64,000 nt of DNA from Escherichia phage mobillu: sequence record MN850622.1; one strand, written 5' to 3'. Shown one piece after another: positions 1,372 to 15,546 of this stretch (within the stretch, counting starts at the first letter, position 1; each line of letters opens with the position of its first letter). The notes below the pieces were generated by a model. That model had not been told where the DNA came from, ran no database searches, and was given only the letters and a program-made list of their open reading frames with translations. A program made the translations under genes and the position numbers.

Positions 1372-1411
1372 TATAATGCCAAGGACGGCCAACTAATTAA
1401 ATGAGAGAAAT

Positions 1412-2047
1412 ATGAAAACTACACCAATCACTATCGCTATTGACGCAATCGTAAAACAAGCTTCATCTCTTGCCACTATGGCTAAAGTAATTAGTCAAAA
1501 CCCTGCTCGGTATAATGCTATTCTTGAAACTCTTCGTCGCCCTGGACTGAGTAATTATGAAAGTCGTGTAATTATTACAGGTGTTGGTAAGAACGCTAAT
1601 ATCGCAACTAAAGCTTCCGAGACTTTTGCTTCACTAGGTATTCCTAGCATGTATTTGAACACTGGGCATTATTCTCATGGTGACGCAGGATTTATTGCAC
1701 CTAATGATGTATTAGTTCACATCAGCCGTTCTGGTAAGACTGAAGAAATGATAGGTGTTGCTAAACATCTTCGTATGATTCGTCCTCAGGTTAAACAGAT
1801 TCTGTTACATTGTAACCCTGACATTCCACAAGAATACGAAGCCCTTTTTGATTACTCTTTCTGTACAGGCATCGCGGTAGAGGTTGATGAGAATTCTCTG
1901 GCTCCGACCATGTCCACTACATTGTTGTTAGCGCTTATCGATACGTTTGCTATCAACCTTTCGTCTGAACGTGGATTTACCTCTAATGATTTCCTTAAGT
2001 TCCATCCAGGCGGTGCACTAGGTGCCATGTTACGAGGCGAACAATGA
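1412..2047 (+). CDS. SIS-domain sugar-phosphate isomerase (arabinose-5-phosphate isomerase KdsD/GutQ-like, SIS domain only)
   Basis: SIS signatures VIITGVGKNANIATKASETFASLG and HISRSGKTEE; 211 aa; sits in the T4 imm slot between 43 and 42. Confidence 0.6.
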   Translation: MKTTPITIAIDAIVKQASSLATMAKVISQNPARYNAILETLRRPGLSNYESRVIITGVGKNANIATKASETFASLGIPSMYLNTGHYSHGDAGFIAPNDVLVHISRSGKTEEMIGVAKHLRMIRPQVKQILLHCNPDIPQEYEALFDYSFCTGIAVEVDENSLAPTMSTTLLLALIDTFAINLSSERGFTSNDFLKFHPGGALGAMLRGEQ

Positions 2048-2187
2048 AAGCAATAACAATAGGACTTTTACTATTGATGCTTGTCATGACTATCTACTGG
2101 AGCTTAACGGCTCCGGTAATGATTCCAACACTTGTAATTGGATGGATTATGATTGGTCTACAGGCAAAGTATGAATGCTTTAACTAG
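2044..2187 (+). CDS. small hydrophobic protein (47 aa, two predicted TM segments)
   Basis: ATGA overlap with upstream stop (translational coupling); strongly hydrophobic; not in ORF track (<60 aa). Confidence 0.3.
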   Translation: MKAITIGLLLLMLVMTIYWSLTAPVMIPTLVIGWIMIGLQAKYECFN

Positions 2188-2228
2188 AATAGTGTACAAT
2201 ACTCCTACTTACCAATGAGGACTTCAAC

Positions 2229-3914
2229 ATGAAAAAAGCTGTTATTCTTGGTGCTGGATTGGCAACTCGTTTGTATCCAATAACGCATCATATTCCTAAG
2301 GTGCTTGTTAACTATAAACAAGACACTATTCTGAGCAATTTGTATACAATTTATTCTGACCTTGGCGCAGATGAAATTATTGTAGTAGTTCATTCAAAAT
2401 TTGCTGAAACTGTTCGAGCTTATTGTGAGCAAGAAGGGTTCAATGTGACTATTCGTACAGTTGATGAAGCGTATGGTTCTGCTTATGCTCTTGCTAAATT
2501 ACACAAAGATTTAGACGGCCATAATGTAATTGTTAACTGGTGTGATATTATTCCCGATTTTGGTTCATGGTCTTGGAATGTTAACGCAATCTATGTTAAG
2601 GGTGACGAATGTCGATATAATTTCGACGGTGAAAATATCACTAACGTAGGTTCAACAGGTGGTAATGTTGTAGGAATTTATCAGTTCAAAGACTGGGAAT
2701 TCTATATGGGTTCTACTGATGAGGAAATTCATGAATACTGCAAAGGACGTGATTTCGTAGAATTCCTTTACGGCAGCGCATTCAATAAATCAGAGCTTAT
2801 GAATATAATTGATTTAGGTGATATGCCTAAACTTGAAAAGGCTCATGAAGTTCGTGAACTTAATCGTAGTTTTAATGCAGTTGAAATTGGTGAAGAAACT
2901 GTAACTAAATTCGCATTAACCGAACAGGGACGAGCTCTTCAGAAAGATGAGATTTCGTGGTATTTGAAAGTGAAATCAGATTCAGTTCCTCAGTTAGTTT
3001 CTGTTAATGAAAATAACTTTGAAATGGAACGCATTAAAGGTAAGCCGGCATTTGAATATATTAAATCAAAATCAAGTCTTGCTCGTCCACAAATTATTGA
3101 TGCAATTTTAGATGCACTGAAATTCAGCACAGACACTTATTTTGTAAGTCCTGAAACTGTTCGTCGTGATTTCACTAAAGAATTCTATACGAAAGTTATT
3201 GATCGTTGTGAAAGCATTCAACCATTGATTGATTCATTTGGTAAAATCACACATGTGAACTACACTAAGATTGGACGTCTGAAGCCAATGCTGAAACAAG
3301 CTTTAGAACACCTTATTCGTTATCATAACCGTTCTCAGGGACAGTACTCTGTTATTCATGGTGACCCGAACTTCAGTAATACTATGATTACTGATAACGG
3401 CGAAGTCAAGTTTATCGACCCTCGTGGATATTTTGGCGAAACCAAGATTTACGGGCCAAAATTGTATGATGAAGCTAAAGTGCTTTATGCTGTTTCAGGT
3501 TATGATGAATTCAATGCTAATCCGACCTGGGGACAGTTTACTATTGATGAAACAACTTGTAATGTGACTATTAACATCAATCCATTAGTTTACAAATATG
3601 GAAAGATGAGTTCGTTTAACGAGTATCATCATTTGGCTGTAGCAATTATCTGGATTGCATTAGGTGGTTATTTCAAGAATAATCCACTTAAAGCGGTAGC
3701 CGCATATTATAAAGGTATGGAACTTCTGACTAAGCAATTACGTAACATGGGCCGTGTACTTCAAGACGGCTCTATTAGTTATGACGTAGCAGAACCTGTA
3801 ACGGCTACTCTGATTACAAAAAATCCTGGTAAATGGGTACTAACTGATAAAGAAACTGGTGTTTCCTATCGTCCAATCGGTGGCGATATCACTCATCAAT
3901 GGGAACGAATCTAA
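2229..3914 (+). CDS. bifunctional sugar-phosphate nucleotidyltransferase / phosphotransferase (APH or choline-kinase-like kinase domain)
   Basis: N-terminus MKKAVILGAGLATRLYPIT has the GxGxRL motif of sugar-1-P nucleotidyltransferases; C-terminal HGDPNFSNTMI plus IDPRG resemble the Brenner motif and DxG of APH/choline-kinase fold. Confidence 0.6.
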   Translation: MKKAVILGAGLATRLYPITHHIPKVLVNYKQDTILSNLYTIYSDLGADEIIVVVHSKFAETVRAYCEQEGFNVTIRTVDEAYGSAYALAKLHKDLDGHNVIVNWCDIIPDFGSWSWNVNAIYVKGDECRYNFDGENITNVGSTGGNVVGIYQFKDWEFYMGSTDEEIHEYCKGRDFVEFLYGSAFNKSELMNIIDLGDMPKLEKAHEVRELNRSFNAVEIGEETVTKFALTEQGRALQKDEISWYLKVKSDSVPQLVSVNENNFEMERIKGKPAFEYIKSKSSLARPQIIDAILDALKFSTDTYFVSPETVRRDFTKEFYTKVIDRCESIQPLIDSFGKITHVNYTKIGRLKPMLKQALEHLIRYHNRSQGQYSVIHGDPNFSNTMITDNGEVKFIDPRGYFGETKIYGPKLYDEAKVLYAVSGYDEFNANPTWGQFTIDETTCNVTININPLVYKYGKMSSFNEYHHLAVAIIWIALGGYFKNNPLKAVAAYYKGMELLTKQLRNMGRVLQDGSISYDVAEPVTATLITKNPGKWVLTDKETGVSYRPIGGDITHQWERI

Positions 3915-4300
3915 TGCACCGTGTAGAAAACATGCTTAATCTTTGTTTTGATGTCGATGATTGTATAACAGAGTGGAATAACAATCGTGATTACGTGAAC
4001 TTCAAACCAGACGTCGAAATGGTGTCTGCCATTAATGCCCTGTATGATGCAGGGCATACCATAACGCTTTACACTGCTCGCGGTATGAAGTCAGTAGGTC
4101 CTGGTCGTATAGCAATTGACATTCTCCCAAGTCTGATTCAGAACTTGGCAAACATTGGCTTGAAGTACCATAATTTGCTAACACATAAACCAGTATATGA
4201 TTGGATTATCGACGACAAAGCTATGCGTCCTGACGAATTCAAAGCTCTTATGAATAAAGGCGAATTCGAAACATTTAAATCATATAAACCAAATCTATAA
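3914..4300 (+). CDS. HAD-superfamily-like small phosphatase
   Basis: N-terminal FDVDDCIT (DxD-type motif I) and C-terminal WIIDDKA (motif IV-like); TAATG overlap with upstream gene; alternative in-frame start at 3899. Confidence 0.45.
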   Translation: MHRVENMLNLCFDVDDCITEWNNNRDYVNFKPDVEMVSAINALYDAGHTITLYTARGMKSVGPGRIAIDILPSLIQNLANIGLKYHNLLTHKPVYDWIIDDKAMRPDEFKALMNKGEFETFKSYKPNL

Positions 4301-4357
4301 TAATTTAAGTAAGACCTGCAAAAACCATCGCATCAATTAACGTGAGATGCAAAAAAA

Positions 4358-5518
4358 ATGAATACTTTTAAAATCGGAACGAATTTTGATTTAGCTCTTC
4401 TTGATAAAATCGTAGAGCTCAATAAAACTTATCCTAATAGCTTGATAAACGAAGTATACGGCTCTACAAGAGAAATGGCTTTTGTAGCAGCCAGACCTGA
4501 TTTTAGGCTTCCTGACGTTGACAAAAAGATGTTAGAAGATTACGTTAAACGTTGTAACGAATTAGGTATTTGCTTTAACTATACACTCAACACGATAAAT
4601 CCTGGTTCAAAAAGAGAACTAGTTGAGTGGAAGAAGAAAGCTATTCAGGATTATGTTCAGTATCTTTGGTCAATAGGCGTATGGCGTATTACTATCGCTA
4701 ACCCTGTTGTTATGGAAATTGTTCGTGAAGTCAATAAAGACATTGAGATTGAAGTTTCAACAATTCTACATGTCGATGCTGTAACTCAAATCAAATACTT
4801 GCATGACCAGTATAATATCAAAAAGGTCTGCTGTGGAATTCATAAGAACCGTTCAGTTTCTTTCCTGAAGCGTGCAGCAGAGTTTTGCAATAAGAACAAT
4901 ATAATATTTGAAGTTCTTGTAAATGAGTTCTGTTCTAATGCTGGTAAAGGGTATACAACACATTGTAGCTATCGTGACTCTTGCTATATTTTCCATAGTA
5001 CTGATGTTACAGCTGATGATGCTAAATCCTTAAACGGATATCCTATGCAGCACTGTATTAAAGCTCGTGATACAGACCCATTTAACTGGTTGAGAACTCG
5101 TTTTGTTCGTCCTCAAGATTTGAAACTTTATAATGATATTGGTATCACTCAATTCAAAGTTTCAGGACGTACAGGTAGCACAGACTACATTTTGAAAGTT
5201 CTTGAAGCATACGCTTCTGAAAAGTTTGAAGGTAATTTGTTAGAACTGTGGAAGCCTTTAGAGACTATTTTCACTCTTGAAAATGAGACCGAGTTTTCAC
5301 ATACGGTAAATATTGAAACCTCTTTGTTAGATGGCTTTTTAGAAAAAAGGTGGTTCAGACATCCAGATTTCGATTGTGCTAATGAAATCTGCGGGACGAC
5401 GTGTACATATTGTGAAAGATATTATAAACGTCAGTTATCTAAAAATGGGTTATCAGAAAATTCTATATCTATTATTGATATAACTAACTCTGATGACGCT
5501 TTGAGGTACCCAGAATGA
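4358..5518 (+). CDS. hypothetical protein, possible peptidase-U32-like fold
   Basis: 386-aa ORF with RBS; Cys-containing segment EFCSNAGKGYTTHCSYRDSC loosely resembles the U32 family signature; assignment tentative. Confidence 0.35.
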   Translation: MNTFKIGTNFDLALLDKIVELNKTYPNSLINEVYGSTREMAFVAARPDFRLPDVDKKMLEDYVKRCNELGICFNYTLNTINPGSKRELVEWKKKAIQDYVQYLWSIGVWRITIANPVVMEIVREVNKDIEIEVSTILHVDAVTQIKYLHDQYNIKKVCCGIHKNRSVSFLKRAAEFCNKNNIIFEVLVNEFCSNAGKGYTTHCSYRDSCYIFHSTDVTADDAKSLNGYPMQHCIKARDTDPFNWLRTRFVRPQDLKLYNDIGITQFKVSGRTGSTDYILKVLEAYASEKFEGNLLELWKPLETIFTLENETEFSHTVNIETSLLDGFLEKRWFRHPDFDCANEICGTTCTYCERYYKRQLSKNGLSENSISIIDITNSDDALRYPE

Positions 5519-5754
5519 TTTCTAGAAAAACTTTTAACCACCAACTTAATGAAGAGATTTTGACTATGAAAATTAACAGCAACGAACAAATTCTTAAAAA
5601 GGCCCTTATGGGCCTGTTTGAAACTAAAGCGGCTAAAGTGATTAAAGGACCTGTTCAATTGGAATACTACGCTGATGCATTTCTTCATAGTGTTCTTGGA
5701 AGTATCGATGCTGAAGCTTTACGTTATATCAACATTGTCAAGAAATTCAAATAA
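5515..5754 (+). CDS. hypothetical protein (79 aa)
   Basis: ATGA overlap with upstream gene; no recognisable motif. Confidence 0.45.
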   Translation: MISRKTFNHQLNEEILTMKINSNEQILKKALMGLFETKAAKVIKGPVQLEYYADAFLHSVLGSIDAEALRYINIVKKFK

Positions 5755-5777
5755 GCTTTACGAATTGAGTATATAAT
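5753..5777 (+). promoter_or_regulatory. middle-type promoter candidate (MotA-box-like aGCTTTA plus TATAAT)
   Basis: aaGCTTTA at 5753-5760, about 11 bp spacer, TATAAT at 5772-5777, upstream of gene 42. Confidence 0.4.
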
Positions 5778-5796
5778 AAATTGTATTGAGGTAAAC

Positions 5797-6513
5797 ATGG
5801 GAAAACATAACACAATGAAATATATCAAAGCCGCAGATTTTCAAACCGCATTTAAAGCAGTCAATCGTGAAATTTTAGAAAACCCGGAATTCGTAACTGA
5901 TTCTCGTATTGGACGTTGTAATGAAATTGGGTCTATGACAGTAGTTGTTGACACTCCATCATCATTCAAAATGACCGACCCACGTATTAACCGCATCTCT
6001 TATGAATACGCCGAAGATTTCTGGAAGTTTATGATTTCTGGTGGTACCAACGCAGAAGAAGCGTTTAAGGCATATCCTAATGTCGCTAAATTTATTTCTA
6101 AACCAAAATCAGATGTTTTGCCGGCGAACTTCAACACTTTCTACGGTCCTCGCATTGCGGCCCAATTACCAGCTCTTCTAAAAGAACTTAAAGAGAAGCC
6201 TAACTCCCGAAGAGTTGTGTTCCAAATTCTAGAAAGTTCTGATCAGGCTTTGCTTGATTCAGACGAAACGCTTGAATATCCATGTACTGACTCAGTGACT
6301 TATTATATTCGTGATGGTAAGCTTTATACCCACTGTCATATGCGTTCTCAGAACTGTGCTGTTGTTATGCAGTTGGATTTTTATCTCCAAGGAAAATTAC
6401 TTCATTATATCGCTAACGAATGTGGTGTAGAAGTTGGTGATTATACTCATACCATGGTAAGTGCCCATGTGTTTGAACGTGATTTTGATTATGTTAAAGG
6501 ATTCCTTGACTAA
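5797..6513 (+). CDS. 42: dCMP hydroxymethylase (thymidylate-synthase fold)
   Basis: Matches remembered T4 gp42 blocks: PNSRRVVFQI, YPCTDSVTYYIRDGKLYTHCHMRSQN, VSAHVFERDF; position between uvsX and 43 as in T4. Confidence 0.85.
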   Translation: MGKHNTMKYIKAADFQTAFKAVNREILENPEFVTDSRIGRCNEIGSMTVVVDTPSSFKMTDPRINRISYEYAEDFWKFMISGGTNAEEAFKAYPNVAKFISKPKSDVLPANFNTFYGPRIAAQLPALLKELKEKPNSRRVVFQILESSDQALLDSDETLEYPCTDSVTYYIRDGKLYTHCHMRSQNCAVVMQLDFYLQGKLLHYIANECGVEVGDYTHTMVSAHVFERDFDYVKGFLD

Positions 6514-8060: not shown

Positions 8061-9233
8061 ATGTCTGATTTAAAATCTCGTTTGATTAAAGCTTCTACTT
8101 CTAAAATGACTGCAGACTTGACTAAGTCTAAGCTGTTTAATAATCGCGATGAAGTCCCTACTCGTATTCCAATGTTGAATATTGCACTAGGTGGTGCACT
8201 GAATGCCGGGTTGCAATCAGGCTTGACTATTTTTGCTGCTCCTTCTAAACACTTTAAAACGTTGTTTGGACTGACCATGGTTGCAGCATATATGAAGAAA
8301 TATAAAGATGCAATCTGTTTGTTTTATGACTCAGAATTCGGTGCTTCGGAATCTTATTTTCGTTCAATGGGTGTTGATTTAGACCGTGTAGTTCATACTC
8401 CGATTCAATCGGTCGAACAACTTAAGGTTGATATGACTAATCAGCTTGACGCGATTGAACGCGGTGATAAAGTTATTATCTTTATTGACTCGATTGGTAA
8501 TACTGCATCTAAGAAAGAAACCGAAGATGCATTGAACGAGAAAGTTGTAGGTGATATGTCTCGTGCTAAGGCACTTAAATCTCTGTTCCGCATTGTGACC
8601 CCGTATCTGACTATTAAAGATATTCCGTGTGTTGCAATTAACCATACAGCAATGGAAATCGGCGGATTGTATCCTAAAGAGATTATGGGCGGTGGTACAG
8701 GTATTCTTTATTCTGCCAACACGGTATTTTTTATCTCTAAACGTCAGGTTAAAGAAGGTACAGAATTGACCGGTTATGACTTCACGTTGAAAGCAGAAAA
8801 ATCTCGCACAGTTAAAGAGAAATCTACTTTCCCGATCACGGTTAATTTTGATGGCGGTATTGACCCATTCAGTGGCTTGTTAGAAATGGCAACTGAAATT
8901 GGTTTTGTAGTTAAGCCTAAAGCTGGTTGGTATGCTCGTGAATTCCTTGACGAAGAAACAGGTGAAATGATTCGTGAAGAAAAATCATGGCGTGCTAAAG
9001 CTACTGATTGTGTAGAATTCTGGGGACCTTTGTTTAAACACAAACCTTTCCGAGATGCAATTGAAACTAAATATAAACTAGGTGCTATCTCTTCTATTAA
9101 AGAAGTTGATGACGCTGTTAACGACCTTATTAATTGCAAAGCAACAACTAAAGTTCCGGTTAAAACTTCTGATGCTCCATCTGCAGCAGATATAGAAAAC
9201 GACCTTGACGAAATGGAAGATTTCGATGAATAA
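8061..9233 (+). CDS. uvsX: UvsX recombinase (RecA-like)
   Basis: Near-identical to remembered T4 UvsX (MSDLKSRLIKASTSK..., Walker A region, C-terminal acidic tail). Confidence 0.97.
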   Translation: MSDLKSRLIKASTSKMTADLTKSKLFNNRDEVPTRIPMLNIALGGALNAGLQSGLTIFAAPSKHFKTLFGLTMVAAYMKKYKDAICLFYDSEFGASESYFRSMGVDLDRVVHTPIQSVEQLKVDMTNQLDAIERGDKVIIFIDSIGNTASKKETEDALNEKVVGDMSRAKALKSLFRIVTPYLTIKDIPCVAINHTAMEIGGLYPKEIMGGGTGILYSANTVFFISKRQVKEGTELTGYDFTLKAEKSRTVKEKSTFPITVNFDGGIDPFSGLLEMATEIGFVVKPKAGWYAREFLDEETGEMIREEKSWRAKATDCVEFWGPLFKHKPFRDAIETKYKLGAISSIKEVDDAVNDLINCKATTKVPVKTSDAPSAADIENDLDEMEDFDE

Positions 9234-9567
9234 TCTCGATGATTTAAATCTAGAAATCGTTGATGAATCCCCTTCTTCGGAAGGGGAAGACATTCGCAAA
9301 GAACGAGTGTTTAATGAATCTCTTAAAATTGTCCGTTCAGCAATGGAAAATGTCATTCAAGAGATTCTGATTACACTTGAAGACGGTTCCCATCATATAG
9401 TCTATATTACAAAACTAGACTGGGTTGATGGTAAAATCGTAATGGACTTTGCAGTTCTTGACCAGGACAGAAAAGCAGAACTTGCACCGCACGTTGAAAA
9501 ATGTGTTACAATGCAAGTACAACAAGCTTTTAATGAACGAACCAAGAAAAAATTTAAATTCTTTTAA
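9226..9567 (+). CDS. 40: gp40 head vertex assembly protein (positional homolog)
   Basis: ATGAATAA overlap with uvsX stop; position between uvsX and 41 as in T4; ORF-track start 9205 is TTG, first ATG is 9226. Confidence 0.6.
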   Translation: MNNLDDLNLEIVDESPSSEGEDIRKERVFNESLKIVRSAMENVIQEILITLEDGSHHIVYITKLDWVDGKIVMDFAVLDQDRKAELAPHVEKCVTMQVQQAFNERTKKKFKFF

Positions 9568-9576
9568 GGAGTTATC

Positions 9577-11019
9577 GTGGTAGAAATTATTTTGTCTCAT
9601 CTAGTATATGACCAGGCTTATTTTTCTAAGGTCTGGCCTTATATGGATTCTGAGTATTTTGAGCGTGGACCGGCAAAAAATGTCTTTAAAATTATAAAGA
9701 GCCACGTTAACGAATATAATGCAATGCCATCTATCAATGCGTTAAAGGTGGCTTTAGATAACAGTTCTTTAACTGAAGCCGAATATAAAGGAACTTCAGA
9801 CCTAATTGAAAAATTGGCTGATACTCCTGAAGACCATGAATGGTTGGTTAAAGAAACTGAGAAATATGTCCAGCAAAAAGCGATGTATAATGCTACATCC
9901 AAAATCATTGAGATTCAGTCTAATGCTGAACTACCTCCAGAACAACGTAACAAGAAAATGCCTGACGTAGGAGCTATTCCTGATATTATGCGTCAAGCAC
10001 TTTCAATTTCGTTTGATAGTTATGTTGGTCATGACTGGATGGAAGACTACGAAGCACGCTGGCTTTCTTATCTAAATAAAGCACGTAAGGTCCCGTTCAA
10101 ATTAAACATTTTGAATAAAATCACTAAAGGTGGTGCTGAAACAGGTACACTAAACGTTTTAATGGCCGGTGTTAACGTTGGTAAATCTTTAGGCCTTTGT
10201 TCACTTGCTGCAGATTATCTTCAAACAGGTCATAACGTTCTTTATATTTCTATGGAAATGGCTGAAGAAGTTTGTGCTAAGCGTATAGATGCAAACATGC
10301 TTGACGTATCACTCGATGATATCGATGATGGTAACGTATCTTATGCTGAATATAAAGCCAAGATGGAAAAATGGCGTTCAAAAACAACATTAGGACGTTT
10401 AGTAGTTAAACAGTATCCCACTGGTGGAGCTAATGCTAATACATTTCGTGCATTGCTTAATGAGTTAAAACTTAAGAAGAACTTTGTGCCATCTGTAATC
10501 ATGGTTGATTACTTAGGTATTTGTGGGTCTTGTCGTATCAGAGTTTACACTGAAAATAGCTACACATTAGTTAAAGCTATCGCAGAAGAACTTCGTGCAT
10601 TAGCAGTAGAATCTGAAACAGTTCTATGGACTGCAGCTCAAGTAGGACGGGCAGCATGGGATGCTTCGGATATGAACATGAGCGATATTGCAGAATCAGC
10701 AGGTTTACCAGCAACGGCAGATTTCATGTTGGCCGTAATTGAAACCGAAGAACTTGCACAAGCTGAACAACAACTTATCAAACAAATCAAATCACGATAC
10801 GGCGATAAGAATAAGTGGAATAAATTCCTGATGGGTGTACGTAAAGGCAACCAGAAATGGATTGAGATTGAGCAAGAAGGCATGAACACACCTAACACAG
10901 TAAATGAAAACGCAGGTGCTCAGATGCGTCAGGCAGAGGTGAATCGTACGGAACGCGTAGGTAAAGCCAAAGCAACACGTGCTGACCTAGATAGCTTAGC
11001 CAATGAGTTAAAATTTTAA
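9577..11019 (+). CDS. 41: gp41 replicative DNA helicase (DnaB-like)
   Basis: Matches remembered T4 gp41 (MVEIILSHL..., Walker A GVNVGKSLG); GTG start preceded by AAGGAG. Confidence 0.95.
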   Translation: MVEIILSHLVYDQAYFSKVWPYMDSEYFERGPAKNVFKIIKSHVNEYNAMPSINALKVALDNSSLTEAEYKGTSDLIEKLADTPEDHEWLVKETEKYVQQKAMYNATSKIIEIQSNAELPPEQRNKKMPDVGAIPDIMRQALSISFDSYVGHDWMEDYEARWLSYLNKARKVPFKLNILNKITKGGAETGTLNVLMAGVNVGKSLGLCSLAADYLQTGHNVLYISMEMAEEVCAKRIDANMLDVSLDDIDDGNVSYAEYKAKMEKWRSKTTLGRLVVKQYPTGGANANTFRALLNELKLKKNFVPSVIMVDYLGICGSCRIRVYTENSYTLVKAIAEELRALAVESETVLWTAAQVGRAAWDASDMNMSDIAESAGLPATADFMLAVIETEELAQAEQQLIKQIKSRYGDKNKWNKFLMGVRKGNQKWIEIEQEGMNTPNTVNENAGAQMRQAEVNRTERVGKAKATRADLDSLANELKF

Positions 11020-11048: not shown

Positions 11049-11078
11049 GTTTACATCTTCCTCTAGGCATGATATGAT
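11049..11078 (+). promoter_or_regulatory. T4-type early promoter
   Basis: GTTTAC 11049-11054, 18 bp spacer, TATGAT 11073-11078. Confidence 0.55.
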
Positions 11079-11107: not shown

Positions 11108-11482
11108 ATGAATATGTCTCAAGCAATTTTTACTGTAATCACCGAAAACACAACTGTTGAAGTAGTTTCTCCACTGGCAACCTACGTTATTCTTGCTCCT
11201 AAAACTATTGTATCTCGTATGGAAAACATGGGCAAACGTATCGTACAAATAGTTGGAGCCGGAAATCAAAAACTTGATTATCTACGAACCATCAAAGCTT
11301 ATGAACATTTCCAACTCGAAAAAGGTTCTCCTATCCAGGTAGAACTCGTAAATGGTGATATCGTTCGAGCAATGTTCCATCATTTCTATGCATTGAATGA
11401 CCCATCTAAAGCGGTTCGTTTAATTGCATACGACGCAAACCAAAACGAAATCAACGCAGATGTATCTAAATTACGTTTTTAA
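11108..11482 (+). CDS. hypothetical protein (124 aa)
   Basis: ORF with RBS aagaggaaaacatt; no recognisable motif. Confidence 0.55.
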   Translation: MNMSQAIFTVITENTTVEVVSPLATYVILAPKTIVSRMENMGKRIVQIVGAGNQKLDYLRTIKAYEHFQLEKGSPIQVELVNGDIVRAMFHHFYALNDPSKAVRLIAYDANQNEINADVSKLRF

Positions 11483-11537
11483 GTTTACTTCTCCAGTAGT
11501 TGTGTTATTATAGATCTATCAACTACTGGAGAACAAA

Positions 11538-11855
11538 ATGAAAACCATCGATTGTAAAGCAGAATTTAAGATTTTTTATCACGGTTCAAGTAGTTCAGCT
11601 AACATCGAAAACATGCTTTGTCCTCCTGAAGAAACAGGAGTTCTGTCTGAAACTGGACGTAAGAAAAACTTGGATCGTGTATTCTTTACTGAAGATATCG
11701 GTTTAGCAAAGATTTATGCAGGACGAGCAGCACGCTCTTATGGAGGTGAACCACGTCTCTATCGAGTAATTTCTCCGGTAGATGTAGTTCAAATGAATGA
11801 TACTAAAGGCGCTACAGTTTATCACGCTGAATGGGCATTTTGCGAGGAAATATGA
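11538..11855 (+). CDS. hypothetical protein (105 aa) with FYHGSSS motif
   Basis: ORF with RBS; a YHGS-type motif is reminiscent of H-Y-E class ADP-ribosyltransferases, but the protein is very small. Confidence 0.5.
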   Translation: MKTIDCKAEFKIFYHGSSSSANIENMLCPPEETGVLSETGRKKNLDRVFFTEDIGLAKIYAGRAARSYGGEPRLYRVISPVDVVQMNDTKGATVYHAEWAFCEEI

Positions 11856-12040
11856 GCAAATTAACTAAAGTTACTTTTATCGGTTGGTTTAAAAGCGGTG
11901 AGATGTTCACTAAAGATATCATGTTATCAGGTGATCGCGAAGAAATCGAGTGGGTTACGGTACAACTTGCTGAAGTGAACAAAGCATTAGTTAAAGCATT
12001 TGTTAATGACGAGAAAGTTTTCGAAGCAGATTTTCGATAA
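11852..12040 (+). CDS. dmd: Dmd antitoxin (discriminator of mRNA degradation; inhibitor of host RnlA/LsoA toxins)
   Basis: Matches remembered T4 Dmd: VTFIGWFKSGEMFTKDI...QLAEVNKALVKAFVNDEKVFEADFR; ATGA-coupled start. Confidence 0.85.
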   Translation: MSKLTKVTFIGWFKSGEMFTKDIMLSGDREEIEWVTVQLAEVNKALVKAFVNDEKVFEADFR

Positions 12041-12052
12041 TTTTAAATAGCT

Positions 12053-12082
12053 GTTTACAAGCCCCACATACTGTGTTACTAT
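12053..12082 (+). promoter_or_regulatory. T4-type early promoter
   Basis: GTTTAC 12053-12058, 18 bp spacer, TACTAT 12077-12082. Confidence 0.55.
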
Positions 12083-12110
12083 CTTTCTATCAACTACAGA
12101 GGAAATTGAA

Positions 12111-12479
12111 ATGAAAAAATTAATCGCTTTAGCAATGGTATTTGGATTAACCGGATGTGGTGCCCATGGCTTTATCCCTAATAATGTTGGCCAACTGATT
12201 TATAATCCGAATGTTAAACAGTACGACCAACCTAAAGTTGAAGTGGAAGACCCGGTTACTGTAGGTAATCGAATGATTCAAGCTGATGCCCATGCTCAAC
12301 GTTATCGTGACTCTGATACTGTAGCATTGTCAAAAGAACAGCGCGTTAAAGAACATTGCTTACAGGCTACTGAAATCGCATTCATTCGCTATGTTGAAAC
12401 AACCGGTAAAGAGCCTACCCAGAAACAAATCGCGAATAACTACGTCCAGTGTATTGAACGTTTAAACAAATTTAATTAA
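12111..12479 (+). CDS. predicted lipoprotein (122 aa)
   Basis: Signal peptide MKKLIALAMVFGLTGC with lipobox L-T-G-C. Confidence 0.6.
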   Translation: MKKLIALAMVFGLTGCGAHGFIPNNVGQLIYNPNVKQYDQPKVEVEDPVTVGNRMIQADAHAQRYRDSDTVALSKEQRVKEHCLQATEIAFIRYVETTGKEPTQKQIANNYVQCIERLNKFN

Positions 12480-12482
12480 TTG

Positions 12483-12512
12483 GTTTACACCAAAGTTAAA
12501 ATAAGATACTAT
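12483..12512 (+). promoter_or_regulatory. T4-type early promoter
   Basis: GTTTAC 12483-12488, 18 bp spacer, TACTAT 12507-12512. Confidence 0.55.
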
Positions 12513-12540
12513 AAACATAACAAATCAAGAGGAAATTAAC

Positions 12541-12789
12541 ATGGAATTATTCGTAGCTAGTTCAGTAGCAGTTTTAATCGCAGGTATTGGTTCAATCATC
12601 ATTTACATGTTGCCTTGGGTAATCGCACTTATTCGTGGCACAAAAAGCACAACAGCAATCTTCTTTGTATCTTTACTCTTTAACTGGACGATGGTTGGTT
12701 GGATTGGAACTTTAATTTGGTCTATCATTGCCGAAAAGAAATCGGCTCAGCAGCCTCAACAAGTAATTATTATTCGCGAAAAAGAATAA
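12541..12789 (+). CDS. small inner-membrane protein, superinfection-immunity (Imm) family-like
   Basis: Two hydrophobic segments; LFNWTMVGWIGTLIWSI resembles the superinfection-immunity family motif; 82 aa, similar in size to T4 Imm. Confidence 0.45.
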   Translation: MELFVASSVAVLIAGIGSIIIYMLPWVIALIRGTKSTTAIFFVSLLFNWTMVGWIGTLIWSIIAEKKSAQQPQQVIIIREKE

Positions 12790-12793
12790 ACTT

Positions 12794-12823
12794 GTTTACA
12801 TTATAGATGGACTATAGTATAGT
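12794..12823 (+). promoter_or_regulatory. T4-type early promoter
   Basis: GTTTAC 12794-12799, 18 bp spacer, TATAGT 12818-12823; -10 region embedded in inverted repeat GGACTA...TAGTCC. Confidence 0.55.
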
Positions 12824-12852
12824 AGTCCTATCAAATCAACTAAGGAGTTAAA

Positions 12853-13146
12853 ATGAAAAAGTTATCATTGGCAGCAATCTTACTTGCAGTATCATGTGCA
12901 CCGGCTCCAGTTACGGCAGGTTATGATAAAGACCTCTGTGAGTGGTCAATGACTGCAAATCAAGAAGATGTTGAACAACAAATCTTCTCTGATATCATGA
13001 ACATCACTAAACGAGACCGTCCTAATATGGTTAATAAAGTTGTTGAACAACTTAAGTCTGGCGGTATCATGCAGTACAACTATGTTTTGTATTGTGACCC
13101 TAATTTCGATAACAAAGATATCGTAACCGAAATCACAGGTGAATAA
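12853..13146 (+). CDS. sp: Spackle (Sp), periplasmic superinfection-exclusion protein / lysozyme inhibitor
   Basis: Signal peptide plus AGYDKDLCEWSMTA...MQYNYVLYCD matching remembered T4 Sp; 97 aa. Confidence 0.85.
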   Translation: MKKLSLAAILLAVSCAPAPVTAGYDKDLCEWSMTANQEDVEQQIFSDIMNITKRDRPNMVNKVVEQLKSGGIMQYNYVLYCDPNFDNKDIVTEITGE

Positions 13147-13147
13147 T

Positions 13148-13798
13148 ATGATTTATTATATGCACAAAAATGCGCCATTTAAATATGGTAAATTTCCTAA
13201 TGCACAATGTTATAATATAACGCCGAATGAAAATAATAACGGATACCATCTCGGTGTAATTTTTGTAATTGTTAAAGATAACGAAATAGTTGCCTGGGCA
13301 GATTTTAAAGGTACAACATATGATGTTAATCCTGTGCCTTTCACATATTACAATATAATGGATTTGGCATATGATTATAATTGGTTTAATCATGACACGT
13401 TGGCTCATATTGAAGGTGTAGGATTTGACATCTCTTATTCTAGCTATTCATTATGTCCTATGAGCCGAGCTCACGGTAAAGATGTATCATATCTTTCAAT
13501 TCGGAAACGTGTAAACTTCAAACGTAGTACAGAGTATGTTGGTGGACTCTTTGTTAAAGATAATAAAATAACCCGTATTAGTTATCCTCTAAGTGTAGGC
13601 CAAAAAGATGTTGATGTTGATTTGGACTTAACTGAAAATAACATTAATCGTATTGCTTCTGTATATTTTGATATCGATGAAAAAATTGTAGTGTGTGGAT
13701 ACGAATTACCACCTGAAGAAAAGGCCGAAGCAATTGAAGTCGAATTAGAAATTTCTGTTGATGACCAAATATTTAATGCATTTATGAATCGAGGTTAA
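13148..13798 (+). CDS. hypothetical protein (216 aa), AT-rich coding sequence
   Basis: ORF with AGGTGA RBS; first ATG at 13148 (track start 13139 is GTG); visibly AT-rich codons. Confidence 0.55.
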   Translation: MIYYMHKNAPFKYGKFPNAQCYNITPNENNNGYHLGVIFVIVKDNEIVAWADFKGTTYDVNPVPFTYYNIMDLAYDYNWFNHDTLAHIEGVGFDISYSSYSLCPMSRAHGKDVSYLSIRKRVNFKRSTEYVGGLFVKDNKITRISYPLSVGQKDVDVDLDLTENNINRIASVYFDIDEKIVVCGYELPPEEKAEAIEVELEISVDDQIFNAFMNRG

Positions 13799-14523: not shown

Positions 14524-15546
14524 ATGGCTGAATGGATAGATAATGAATTTGCTTATCGTGCGTTTTCTCACCTACCTCGTTTTAGACAAATCAATAATTC
14601 AAGCACATTTAAATTAACATTTCGATGTCCAGTTTGTGGCGACTCTCAGACAGATGCAATGAAAGCTCGCGGTTGGTATTATGGCGGTACTCCTGGTAAT
14701 GTACATTGCTATAACTGTCAATACCACAATACAATTTCCGGATACTTAAAGGAGTATGATGAAGAGCTTTATCGCGAATATCTAATGGAAGTTCGTAAAG
14801 AAAAAGCTAGAATGGAACCAAAGATTGAAAAGGTTCCTGAAGCTAAGCCAGAGCCAGAGAAAAAGACTATAAATTCTTTGCCGTCTTGTTCTCGTCTGGA
14901 CAAGTTGCCTGAAGAGCATCCTATTGTGAAATATGTTAAGTCTCGGTGTATTCCTAAAGAATCATGGAACAGATTATGGTTCACATTAGAATGGCCCAAA
15001 TTGGTCAACAAGATTCAACCTGGTACGTATAAGAAAGAGATTCCCGAACCACGTTTAGTGATTCCTATTTTTAATAAAGATGGTAAGGCCGAGTCATTCC
15101 AAGGACGTGCACTTCGTAAAGATGCTCCTCAGAAATATATCACTATTAAAGCGTTTGAGTCTGCAACAAAAATTTATGGTGTTGAACGTGTTAAGGAAGG
15201 GGACGTCTGGGTAATGGAAGGCCCTATTGATAGTTTATTCATACCCAATGCAATCGCTATTACAGGCGGCTCAATAGATTTAGATGTGGTACCATTTAAA
15301 GAACGTCGGGTATGGGTAATGGATAATGAACCTAGGCATCCGGATACTATAGCTCGCATGAAGCGATTAGTTGATGCAGGCGAACGTGTCATGTTCTGGG
15401 ATCGAGCTCCATGGAGATCAAAGGATGTGAATGATATGGTAATGAAAGAAAATGCAACACCACAAGAAATTTTAGAATATATGAAACAGAATATTTCAAG
15501 TGGGTTGCATGCTAAAATGAGATTATCTCGTTATTCGAAGATTTAA
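14524..15546 (+). CDS. 61: DNA primase gp61
   Basis: Matches remembered T4 gp61 (zinc finger CPVCGDS...CYNC, Toprim region RVWVMDNEPRHPDT). Confidence 0.95.
   Translation: MAEWIDNEFAYRAFSHLPRFRQINNSSTFKLTFRCPVCGDSQTDAMKARGWYYGGTPGNVHCYNCQYHNTISGYLKEYDEELYREYLMEVRKEKARMEPKIEKVPEAKPEPEKKTINSLPSCSRLDKLPEEHPIVKYVKSRCIPKESWNRLWFTLEWPKLVNKIQPGTYKKEIPEPRLVIPIFNKDGKAESFQGRALRKDAPQKYITIKAFESATKIYGVERVKEGDVWVMEGPIDSLFIPNAIAITGGSIDLDVVPFKERRVWVMDNEPRHPDTIARMKRLVDAGERVMFWDRAPWRSKDVNDMVMKENATPQEILEYMKQNISSGLHAKMRLSRYSKI

Follow-up and report, generated by a model that had tools for sequence, protein, structure and literature searches.

Analysis of a 64,000-nucleotide stretch of the Escherichia phage mobillu genome (record MN850622.1; hereafter the window) pointed to a two-gene module, imm.1–imm, that very probably moved as a unit in the Mosigvirus lineage to a site between 61.4 and sp, away from its ancestral place directly downstream of the polymerase gene 43. 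We consider this a clean, well-supported case of two genes changing place together inside a T-even genome, with a remnant left at the old locus. Four consecutive plus-strand open reading frames, dmd, the lipoprotein gene imm.1, imm and sp, exactly fill positions 11852–13146, very probably representing the dmd/imm.1/imm/sp segment of an RB69-like T-even phage within the variable stretch between the helicase gene 41 and the primase gene 61, which carries a string of small early genes. With 99% DNA identity to Mosigvirus genomes, and with 152 records covering at least 80% of a 3.6-kb region, the window can be assigned by its sequence to Mosigvirus, i.e. to the RB69-like T-even phages. The four genes are already known at this locus, being named in the RB69 reference annotation. 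As over 150 Mosigvirus genome sequences show the arrangement, and as Dmd, Imm, Sp and AdfA have established functions in T4 or RB69, little discovery weight attaches to it; the occurrence of Imm.1 at the RB69 locus corrects, on the other hand, the literature, in which the RB69 group has been said to be without Imm.1.

The original prediction had named the four products as Dmd, a lipoprotein, an Imm-family membrane protein and Spackle, and these assignments were borne out by Pfam and PHROG matches that passed the cut-offs, together with the identities to the T4 proteins (Table 1). Dmd matched PF17587 (E 5e-21, 75.2 bits at a cut-off of 27, residues 4–62 on profile positions 3–59 of 60) and phrog_2102 (E 3.8e-33). 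Its alignment with T4 Dmd agreed with the assignment at 57–58% identity (E 1e-17 to T4 Dmd in PDB entry 5hy3), and 60 of its 62 residues were identical to those in PDB entry 5i8j. Spackle covered positions 1–96 of 96 in PF25676 (E 1e-42, 145 bits, cut-off 27) and matched the solved structures 6x6o, 6xc0, 6xc1, 7cn6 and 7cn7; here, too, alignment with the T4 protein confirmed the prediction, at 66% identity with Cys29 and Cys81 both aligned and conserved. T4 Spackle has a disulfide and a 75-aa mature form (PMC7677548). The flanking genes 41 and 61 encode products with 85% identity to T4 gp41 and 74% identity to the T4 counterpart, respectively. By orthology with T4, Dmd would act in the cytoplasm, neutralising the RNase toxins RnlA/LsoA of the host by binding to them, while Sp would be exported to the periplasm and there inhibit the gp5 tail lysozyme of incoming phages.

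Table 1. Positions, strand and supporting evidence of the features discussed, in the numbering of the window.
Feature	Position	Strand	Evidence
47-aa membrane ORF (phrog_3610 = RB69ORF054c), remnant left at the ancestral imm locus	2044..2187	+	PHROG, synteny
Early-promoter-like site, predicted to serve the 105-aa ORF and dmd; GTTTACT, 16-nt spacer, TATTAT	11483..11511	+	consensus match
105-aa ORF (RB69ORF040c family, phrog_2110), predicted minimal ADP-ribosyltransferase fold	11538..11855	+	PHROG, fold comparison
dmd, antitoxin against RnlA/LsoA RNase toxins, 62 aa	11852..12040	+	PF17587, phrog_2102, T4 alignment
Early-promoter-like site upstream of imm.1; GTTTACA, 17-nt spacer, TACTAT	12053..12082	+	consensus match
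imm.1, predicted lipoprotein, 122 aa, lipobox LTGC, Cys16, Gly at +2	12111..12479	+	PF17578 (DUF5481), phrog_1754
Early-promoter-like site upstream of imm; GTTTACA, 17-nt spacer, TACTAT	12483..12512	+	consensus match
imm, superinfection immunity inner-membrane protein, 82 aa, two hydrophobic segments	12541..12789	+	PF14373, phrog_1039
Early-promoter-like site upstream of sp; GTTTACA, 17-nt spacer, TATAGT	12794..12823	+	consensus match
sp (spackle), periplasmic inhibitor of gp5 tail lysozyme, 97 aa including a 22-aa signal peptide	12853..13146	+	PF25676, phrog_1586
adfA (gene 61.2), anti-DarT factor A	13160..13798	+	PF23813

Membership of the 82-aa protein in the Imm family, as had been proposed, was evident both from the profile searches, where it scored 57.0 bits against PF14373 (cut-off 27.9; residues 21–62 on profile positions 1–42 of 42) and E 4e-30 against phrog_1039, and from its alignment with T4 Imm. 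The T4 protein is experimentally characterised, having about 83 aa with hydrophobic N-terminal two thirds and a charged C-terminal tail. Colinear with it over the full length, the window protein has hydrophobic stretches at residues 1–34 and 40–59 and is 64% identical end to end (53/83 identical with one gap, the C-terminal VIIIREKE being identical). Because this full-length identity lies in the range of the neighbours (Sp 66%, AdfA 68%, Dmd 57%, the C-terminal part of gp43 59%), we regard the protein, as judged by its sequence, as a true ortholog of T4 Imm and not a non-orthologous substitute. By that orthology it would insert into the inner membrane, with the effect that DNA entry by later-adsorbing phages would be blocked.

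Relocation and non-orthologous replacement had both been offered to explain the unusual position of imm; the former stood, with the 64% identity to T4 Imm and the joint displacement of the gene pair, and the latter did not. Replacement would imply that a Mosigvirus ancestor lost its gene-43-side imm and that an unrelated phage was the donor of both an Imm-family gene and a lipoprotein gene, which were inserted between dmd and sp; this we find very unlikely. Donors do exist, as PF14373 proteins occur in unrelated Vibrio, Ralstonia and Burkholderia phages as well as in 47-kb coliphages, and Imm.1 is merely 32% identical to T4 Imm.1. However, the divergence of Imm from its T4 counterpart is that of its neighbours and also of UvsX (68%), the Imm proteins ranking next in similarity are those of other Tevenvirinae at 47–50% identity, the order imm.1-then-imm is that of T4, and the two genes changed place jointly. 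Throughout 1034 phage records imm was found at 1034 places, never twice in one record, and tblastn over the window gave a single copy each of imm and imm.1.

Between genes 43 and 42, the place of imm.1 and imm in T4, the window has genes for SIS-domain, nucleotidyltransferase and U32-like proteins and no imm, in accordance with the prediction that imm was absent from its T4 position. We compared the synteny in seven genera including Mosigvirus, and found imm just downstream of gene 43 in T4, JS10 (Dhakavirus), PSD2001 (Gaprivervirus), a Proteus Gelderlandvirus, Serratia phage Muldoon and Klebsiella phage KP1 (Jiaodavirus). Since imm thus follows gene 43 in the six other genera sampled, the Mosigvirus position is very probably derived and the place directly downstream of gene 43 ancestral. 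An Imm.1-family (phrog_1754) gene adjoins imm in T4, RB69, KP1, the Proteus phage, Muldoon and the window, and lies one small ORF away from it in JS10 and PSD2001. The sequence of the lipoprotein identifies it as the ortholog of T4 Imm.1, the neighbour of imm in T4, and imm.1 and imm therefore moved together.

What was left behind is a 47-aa membrane ORF of phrog_3610. It directly follows imm in T4, JS10 and PSD2001; the window and RB69 have it behind the SIS gene, between genes 43 and 42. Its ATG overlaps the stop codon of that SIS-domain gene (the sugar-island isomerase, positions 1412–2047) in an ATGA overlap like those of T4 and PSD2001. The counterpart in RB69, RB69ORF054c, is likewise located in the 43–42 interval and was annotated as ‘similar to T4 42-imm intercistronic region’. 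That the move went the other way, with the dmd–sp position being ancestral and the gene-43 position of T4 and the others derived, is most improbable. The comparison covers seven genera with no outgroup-rooted reconstruction, which leaves some room for that direction, but imm lies directly after gene 43 in 6/7 of them, including the distant Jiaodavirus and Muldoonvirus, the small phrog_3610 ORF stands without imm in the Mosigvirus 43–42 interval just as an excision would leave it, and the pair interrupts, in RB69 and phage moha, the 61.4–sp adjacency of T4. We also considered whether the sugar island had displaced imm from its original place, but as JS10 has both imm beside gene 43 and a similar sugar gene set just downstream, such displacement is not a necessary explanation and was not found compelling.

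The window can be set against its closest references. In RB69 (NC_004928), a phage of the same genus, RB69p039–RB69p035 represent dmd, 61.4, imm.1, imm and sp, with the same order, names and 41–61 locus as in the window; ORF041c and ORF040c upstream as well as 61.2/adfA downstream are also shared. The two differ in that RB69 has a 61.4 homolog between dmd and imm.1, and in that the sugar-island nucleotidyltransferase/kinase is one 561-aa ORF in the window, yet split in two in the RB69 record. As 61.4 is found between dmd and imm.1 in both moha and RB69 and is absent from the window through a clean indel, the window phage has additionally lost this gene. With T4, the window shares the early-promoter architecture. 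The T4 genome has imm.1–imm between genes 43 and 42 and dmd–61.4–sp between genes 41 and 61, so that the pair, adjoining gene 43, is some 5 kb distant, whereas in the window it lies between dmd and sp. The gap between imm.1 and imm is 11 bp in T4, with no promoter in it, compared to 61 bp with a promoter-like site in the window, and the small phrog_3610 ORF, whose start overlaps imm in T4, stayed at the old locus in the window.

Early promoters were predicted from consensus matches to GTTTAC-N17/18-TAYWRT (GTTTAC(W) with a 16–17-nt spacer). The window contains 13 such stringent matches, all on the plus strand, compared to 0.27 expected by chance, and four of the 13 fall within 11483–12823. It had been claimed that each of the four genes has its own early promoter; with a match looked for within about 60 bp upstream of each gene, this held true for imm.1, imm and sp (sites at 12053, 12483 and 12794) but not for dmd, for which the nearest site, at 11483, precedes the 105-aa ORF. 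The dmd ATG overlaps the stop codon of that ORF (ATGA), and dmd thus seems to lack a promoter of its own and to form an operon with the upstream gene, the promoter of which would serve both; dmd would accordingly be read from the promoter of the 105-aa gene, using its own ribosome-binding site inside the 3′ end of that gene. By orthology with T4, host RNA polymerase would transcribe the cluster right after infection from these closely spaced predicted early promoters.

In a published proposal (PMC2839356, PMC4122927), the modules of T4-type genomes are shuffled by means of promoter-early stem-loop (PeSL) cassettes. The approximately 60-bp cassette before each small gene of the window resembles them in fitting the T4/PST consensus TTTACW-N17-TAYWAT at five sites, but differs in that a clear stem-loop is found at one of the five cassettes only (11484–11538), where a 19-nt inverted repeat (11484–11502/11520–11538) encloses the promoter-like site at 11483. 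When the cassettes of the window and T4 were compared, all pairs were 62–75% alike. The two best, both at 0.75 and slightly above the rest, paired T4 61.4–sp with either window imm.1–imm or window imm–sp. The cassettes being about equally alike, there was no one-to-one correspondence, and this comparison identified no recombination junction, so none is claimed. As in the PeSL model, we infer that the move may have occurred by recombination between the approximately 60-bp early promoter/leader cassettes flanking the genes.

The lipoprotein Imm.1 scored 37.3 bits against PF17578 (DUF5481; cut-off 27) and E 5e-29 against phrog_1754, and BLASTP against T4 Imm.1 gave E 1e-18 with 32% identity over 125 columns. 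Using as lipobox criterion a signal peptide ending in [LVI][ASTVI][GAS]C, the signal peptide was MKKLIALAMVFGLTGC, with its Cys at position 16, and the L-T-G-C lipobox foreseen in the original prediction was hence found; a lipobox-like motif occurs in 44/48 members of the family, with L13, G15 and C16 kept in at least 90% of the aligned family sequences. Imm.1 is thus predicted to be exported and lipidated. As it has no Asp at +2, a residue that none of the family members has there, it would probably be sorted to the outer membrane. The mature parts in the family mostly have two or four Cys; in the window protein, the C-terminal three-helix domain has two conserved ones, C83 and C114. The structure model had a weak mean pLDDT of 60.6, with the first 55 residues disordered followed by a three-helix bundle, and gave no Foldseek match in the PDB at E ≤0.001, for which reasons we rejected it as a functional clue.

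Homologs of Imm.1 were few, with three proteins found in a single-sequence search and 21 in a profile search, while a profile search run exhaustively over 1.84 billion cluster representatives gave 32 clusters, all of short phage-type proteins; none of these searches led to a wider family with a functional hint. Using phmmer with the window and T4 Imm.1 proteins against the ORFs of other genera gave one weak hit, so that PHROG profiles were needed to see the homology. The weakest profile match, P0169 (E 7.5e-4), has a C-terminal SLT transglycosylase domain, but the match was marginal, involving mainly the signal peptide and linker, and was set aside. Scanning the cluster proteins with NCBIfam yielded no usable result.

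Our best guess is that Imm.1 contributes, alongside Imm, to envelope protection or to the exclusion of superinfecting phages. A more specific proposal, which we put forward tentatively and hold to be somewhat unlikely as it stands, is that Imm.1 is a third envelope part of T-even superinfection exclusion, probably outer-membrane-anchored and working with the inner-membrane Imm and the periplasmic Sp. If true, this would explain the adjacency of imm and imm.1 across Straboviridae genera despite changes in order, as well as their joint move to beside sp in Mosigvirus, and the fast divergence of Imm.1 could then be an adaptation to a target that varies, either on incoming phages or on host receptors. 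There is about an even chance, however, that Imm.1 is unrelated to Imm and exclusion, the two genes being neighbours merely as small dispensable modules of one variable region, with Imm.1 having another job such as a receptor block like that of the T5 lipoprotein Llp, lysis control or host envelope modification. No experiment ties imm.1 to exclusion, Imm.1 diverges much faster than Imm (32% vs 64% identity) and the fold and profile searches came without a functional clue; moreover, the imm/imm.1 order varies among genera and the genes have separate promoters in the window, which argues against a fixed operon. Against such independence, imm and imm.1 are neighbours in 7/7 genera examined and kept this adjacency through a relocation of roughly 10 kb in Mosigvirus, their record counts are closely equal in two genera (Imm.1 vs Imm, 154 vs 153 in Mosigvirus and 502 vs 501 in Tequatrovirus), and the products of imm.1, imm and sp would all act in the cell envelope. 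T5 Llp and similar exclusion lipoproteins (PMC9586334) resemble Imm.1 in being small early lipoproteins of lytic phages, and Imm.1 lies beside known exclusion genes, but the fold and profile searches with Imm.1 showed no similarity to Llp in sequence or structure, and the likeness is by analogy only.

The content of the anti-defence cluster was as predicted, but its extent was not, as it reaches further on both sides, to adfA downstream and to a small ADP-ribosyltransferase-fold gene upstream. The latter is the highly conserved 105-aa ORF, in whose product H15, Y60 and E103 are invariant, located outside the limits first given for the cluster; a search with its sequence against the PDB gave no match, and the putative ADP-ribosyltransferase fold was identified by fold comparison only. 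Together with the Imm.1 lipoprotein, this ADP-ribosyltransferase-like protein would be a reasonable experimental target in the anti-defence neighbourhood. The adfA gene, also beyond the limits first given, adjoins the cluster downstream of sp, and its product scored 397.5 bits against PF23813 (cut-off 27). Neutralisation of DarT1 has been linked to His at position 164 of AdfA, with the RB69-type Arg reported as non-neutralising (PMC11257639), and residue 164 of the window AdfA is Arg, i.e. the RB69-type allele.

The original prediction had read the cluster as Dmd, a lipoprotein, an Imm-family inner membrane protein and Spackle, and all four gene calls were upheld by profile matches together with alignments to the T4 proteins. 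The 62-aa protein matched the Dmd family PF17587 at 75 bits (cut-off 27) as well as phrog_2102, was 57–58% identical to T4 Dmd, had 60 of its 62 residues in common with the solved structure 5i8j and was related to the T4 Dmd in 5hy3. The 97-aa protein was Spackle (PF25676, 145 bits), having 66% identity to T4 Sp, of which several structures are solved (PDB 6x6o, 6xc0, 6xc1, 7cn6 and 7cn7), and it retains the signal peptide as well as the two Cys residues that form the known disulfide. Profile search also placed the 82-aa protein in the Imm family: it scored 57 bits with PF14373 (cut-off 27.9) and matched phrog_1039 as well. This protein has two hydrophobic segments and aligned end to end with T4 Imm, with 53 of 83 residues identical and the C-terminal VIIIREKE unchanged. 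The interval first proposed, 11852–13146, begins exactly where dmd starts, ends exactly where sp stops, and is filled by four successive + strand ORFs with short spacers.

Features of the cluster, its surroundings and the 43–42 interval in the window
Feature	Coordinates	Strand	Length	Position
phrog_3610 ORF	2044–2187	+		after SIS gene, ATGA overlap
Nucleotidyltransferase/kinase gene	2229–3914	+	561 aa	arabinose island
Gene at T4 gene 42 position	5797–6513	+
Gene 41	9577–11019			upstream of cluster
124-aa ORF	11108–11482	+	124 aa	between gene 41 and 105-aa ORF
105-aa ORF	11538–11855	+	105 aa	upstream of dmd
dmd	11852–12040	+	62 aa	cluster
imm.1	12111–12479	+	122 aa	cluster
imm	12541–12789	+	82 aa	cluster
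sp	12853–13146	+	97 aa	cluster
adfA (61.2)	13160–13798	+	212 aa	directly downstream of sp
Primase gene 61	14524–15546			downstream; two small ORFs between adfA and gene 61

The 3.6-kb region was 98.6–99.0% identical to that of many Escherichia and Shigella phages, for example NRG-P0074, JK45, mar005P1 and moha, and at least 80% of it was covered by 152 records. The moha record is classed as Mosigvirus, the genus of RB69, and the RB69 reference (NC_004928) gives the order 41, ORF041c, ORF040c, dmd, 61.4, imm.1, imm, sp and 61.2, already under those names, with the same cluster genes annotated in many Mosigvirus records. The four-gene finding is thus a correct reading of an arrangement already known from the RB69 record.

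In T4 the corresponding orders are 43/imm.1/imm/42 and 41/dmd/61.4/sp/61.2/61.1/61. As had been proposed, the T4 imm position is taken in the window by the sugar island, the 43–42 interval (1372–5796) lacking imm and containing genes of the SIS-domain, nucleotidyltransferase and U32-like types; the equivalent RB69 gp45–55 region is credited with making arabinosylated 5-hydroxycytosine (PMC13326640). Using tblastn, a single copy each of imm and imm.1 was found in the window, both within 12111–12789. Of the two explanations first offered for this placement, relocation or non-orthologous replacement, only relocation stood. Identities to T4 were 85% for gp41, 74% for gp61, 68% for UvsX, 68% for AdfA, 66% for Sp, 64% for Imm, 59% for the C-terminal part of gp43 and 57% for Dmd, so that Imm falls inside the range of the surrounding orthologs, as expected of an ortholog rather than of a gene acquired elsewhere.

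The direction of the move could be read from other genera. In all six comparison phages, namely T4 (Tequatrovirus), JS10 (Dhakavirus), PSD2001 (Gaprivervirus), a Proteus Gelderlandvirus, Serratia phage Muldoon and Klebsiella phage KP1 (Jiaodavirus), imm lies directly downstream of gene 43, and across the phage collection 1034 records matched imm at 1034 places, two copies being present in no genome. Directly after imm in T4, JS10 and PSD2001 comes a membrane ORF of 47–49 aa (phrog_3610), which in T4 (L002, the T4 locus, 9228–9377, − strand) is unannotated in the reference record and has its ATG overlapping the imm stop. Its counterpart in the window is a remnant of the old imm locus, as is RB69 ORF054c, likewise located after the SIS gene with an ATGA overlap and annotated as "similar to T4 42-imm intercistronic region". 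Given this remnant and the position of imm in the six other genera, the Mosigvirus position is derived, and the slot before the phrog_3610 ORF is in Mosigvirus now held by the isomerase gene.

A phrog_1754 member, the family of Imm.1, adjoins imm or lies one small ORF away in 6/6 of the other genera; JS10 and PSD2001 have it downstream of imm, the other four phages upstream. Record counts for Imm.1 versus Imm were 154 versus 153 in Mosigvirus and 502 versus 501 in Tequatrovirus, with a further 132 JS10-type and 148 KP1-type Imm.1 records. Both genes shifted by about 10 kb to one spot in Mosigvirus. Since RB69 and moha keep a 61.4 homolog (phrog_2375; comparison locus L001, 2546–2758) between dmd and imm.1, the imm.1–imm pair was inserted between 61.4 and sp. 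No 61.4 homolog was found in the window by tblastn, and at 12041–12110 it is missing as a clean indel of about 207 bp; the phage studied here has lost 61.4, which is a presence/absence polymorphism within Mosigvirus.

The 64-kb window contained 13 matches to the T4-early pattern GTTTAC-N17/18-TAYWRT, where 0.27 would be expected. All were on the + strand, and four of them were at 11483, 12053, 12483 and 12794. An early promoter for each of the four genes had been predicted, and this held for imm.1, imm and sp, each having its own promoter-like site 28–30 bp upstream of the start codon, but not for dmd, which has none. The 105-aa ORF ends in a stop codon that overlaps the dmd ATG (AGGAAATATGA), and dmd would therefore be read from the promoter-like site at 11483. 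Whereas imm.1 and imm are 11 bp apart in T4, they are separated in the window by 61 bp that include a promoter-like site. The promoter/leader cassettes were 62–75% alike, both among themselves and compared with T4 cassettes, and one sits in a 19-nt inverted repeat; these features agree with the published model of shuffling by promoter-early stem-loop (PeSL) cassettes (PMC2839356, PMC4122927). Comparison of the cassettes of the window and T4 revealed no recombination junctions.

The predicted lipoprotein indeed carries an LTGC lipobox, with the Cys at position 16, and matched PF17578 (DUF5481). Its homology to T4 Imm.1 (E 1e-18, 32% identity), combined with a match to phrog_1754, identifies it as the Imm.1 ortholog. 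In a published comparison Imm.1 was scored as a T4-group gene that the RB69 group lacks (PMC5885020), which is contradicted by the homology found here and by the RB69 annotation; the RB69-group gene was probably overlooked owing to sequence divergence. Among 48 family members, 44 had a lipobox-like motif, none had Asp at +2 and most had two or four Cys in the mature part, with L13, G15 and C16 at least 90% conserved in the family alignment. The structural model (mean pLDDT 60.6) was disordered over residues 1–55, followed by a C-terminal three-helix bundle, and structure search with it gave no significant fold match. Exhaustive profile searching reached only 32 clusters, none with an informative Pfam domain. 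Kept linkage with imm and a shared envelope location make a role of Imm.1 in exclusion plausible but unproven, and we consider it less likely than not that Imm.1 takes part in superinfection exclusion as a functional partner.

Within the arabinose island, the nucleotidyltransferase/kinase gene is a single ORF. The RB69 record shows it as two, ORF053c and ORF052c, a split that probably stems from a frameshift or an error in the sequencing of RB69. The protein encoded at the T4 gene 42 position had 24% identity to T4 dCMP hydroxymethylase, far under its neighbours, in keeping with reports that RB69 uses a different cytosine chemistry (5-hydroxycytosine).

Regarding the genes flanking the cluster, AdfA (PF23813, 397 bits; 68% identical to the T4 protein) has Arg at residue 164, the RB69-type allele, which has been reported as unable to neutralise DarT1, with the single change R164H restoring activity in RB69 (PMC11257639). 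The 124-aa ORF belongs to the RB69ORF041c family (phrog_10668) and is preceded by a promoter-like site of its own, at 11050. It gave no family or domain match and is absent from T4 at that position. The 105-aa ORF, at a locus that varies from genus to genus, was found in 609 phage records, enterobacterial phages included, and even the T4-like phages of Aeromonas and Acinetobacter have it at 64–72% identity. There was no T4-group (Tequatrovirus) phage among the matches listed, and in T4 just 58 bp separate genes 41 and dmd. Residues H15, G16, Y60, R63 and E103 of its product are invariant. The model (pLDDT 85.8) had as its three closest structures RNA 2′-phosphotransferase, the rifampin ADP-ribosyltransferase Arr and the anti-CRISPR AcrIF11, and in a viral structure library it matched a phage protein named after Arr (E 1.7e-8), so that a minimal ADP-ribosyltransferase fold can be predicted with confidence.
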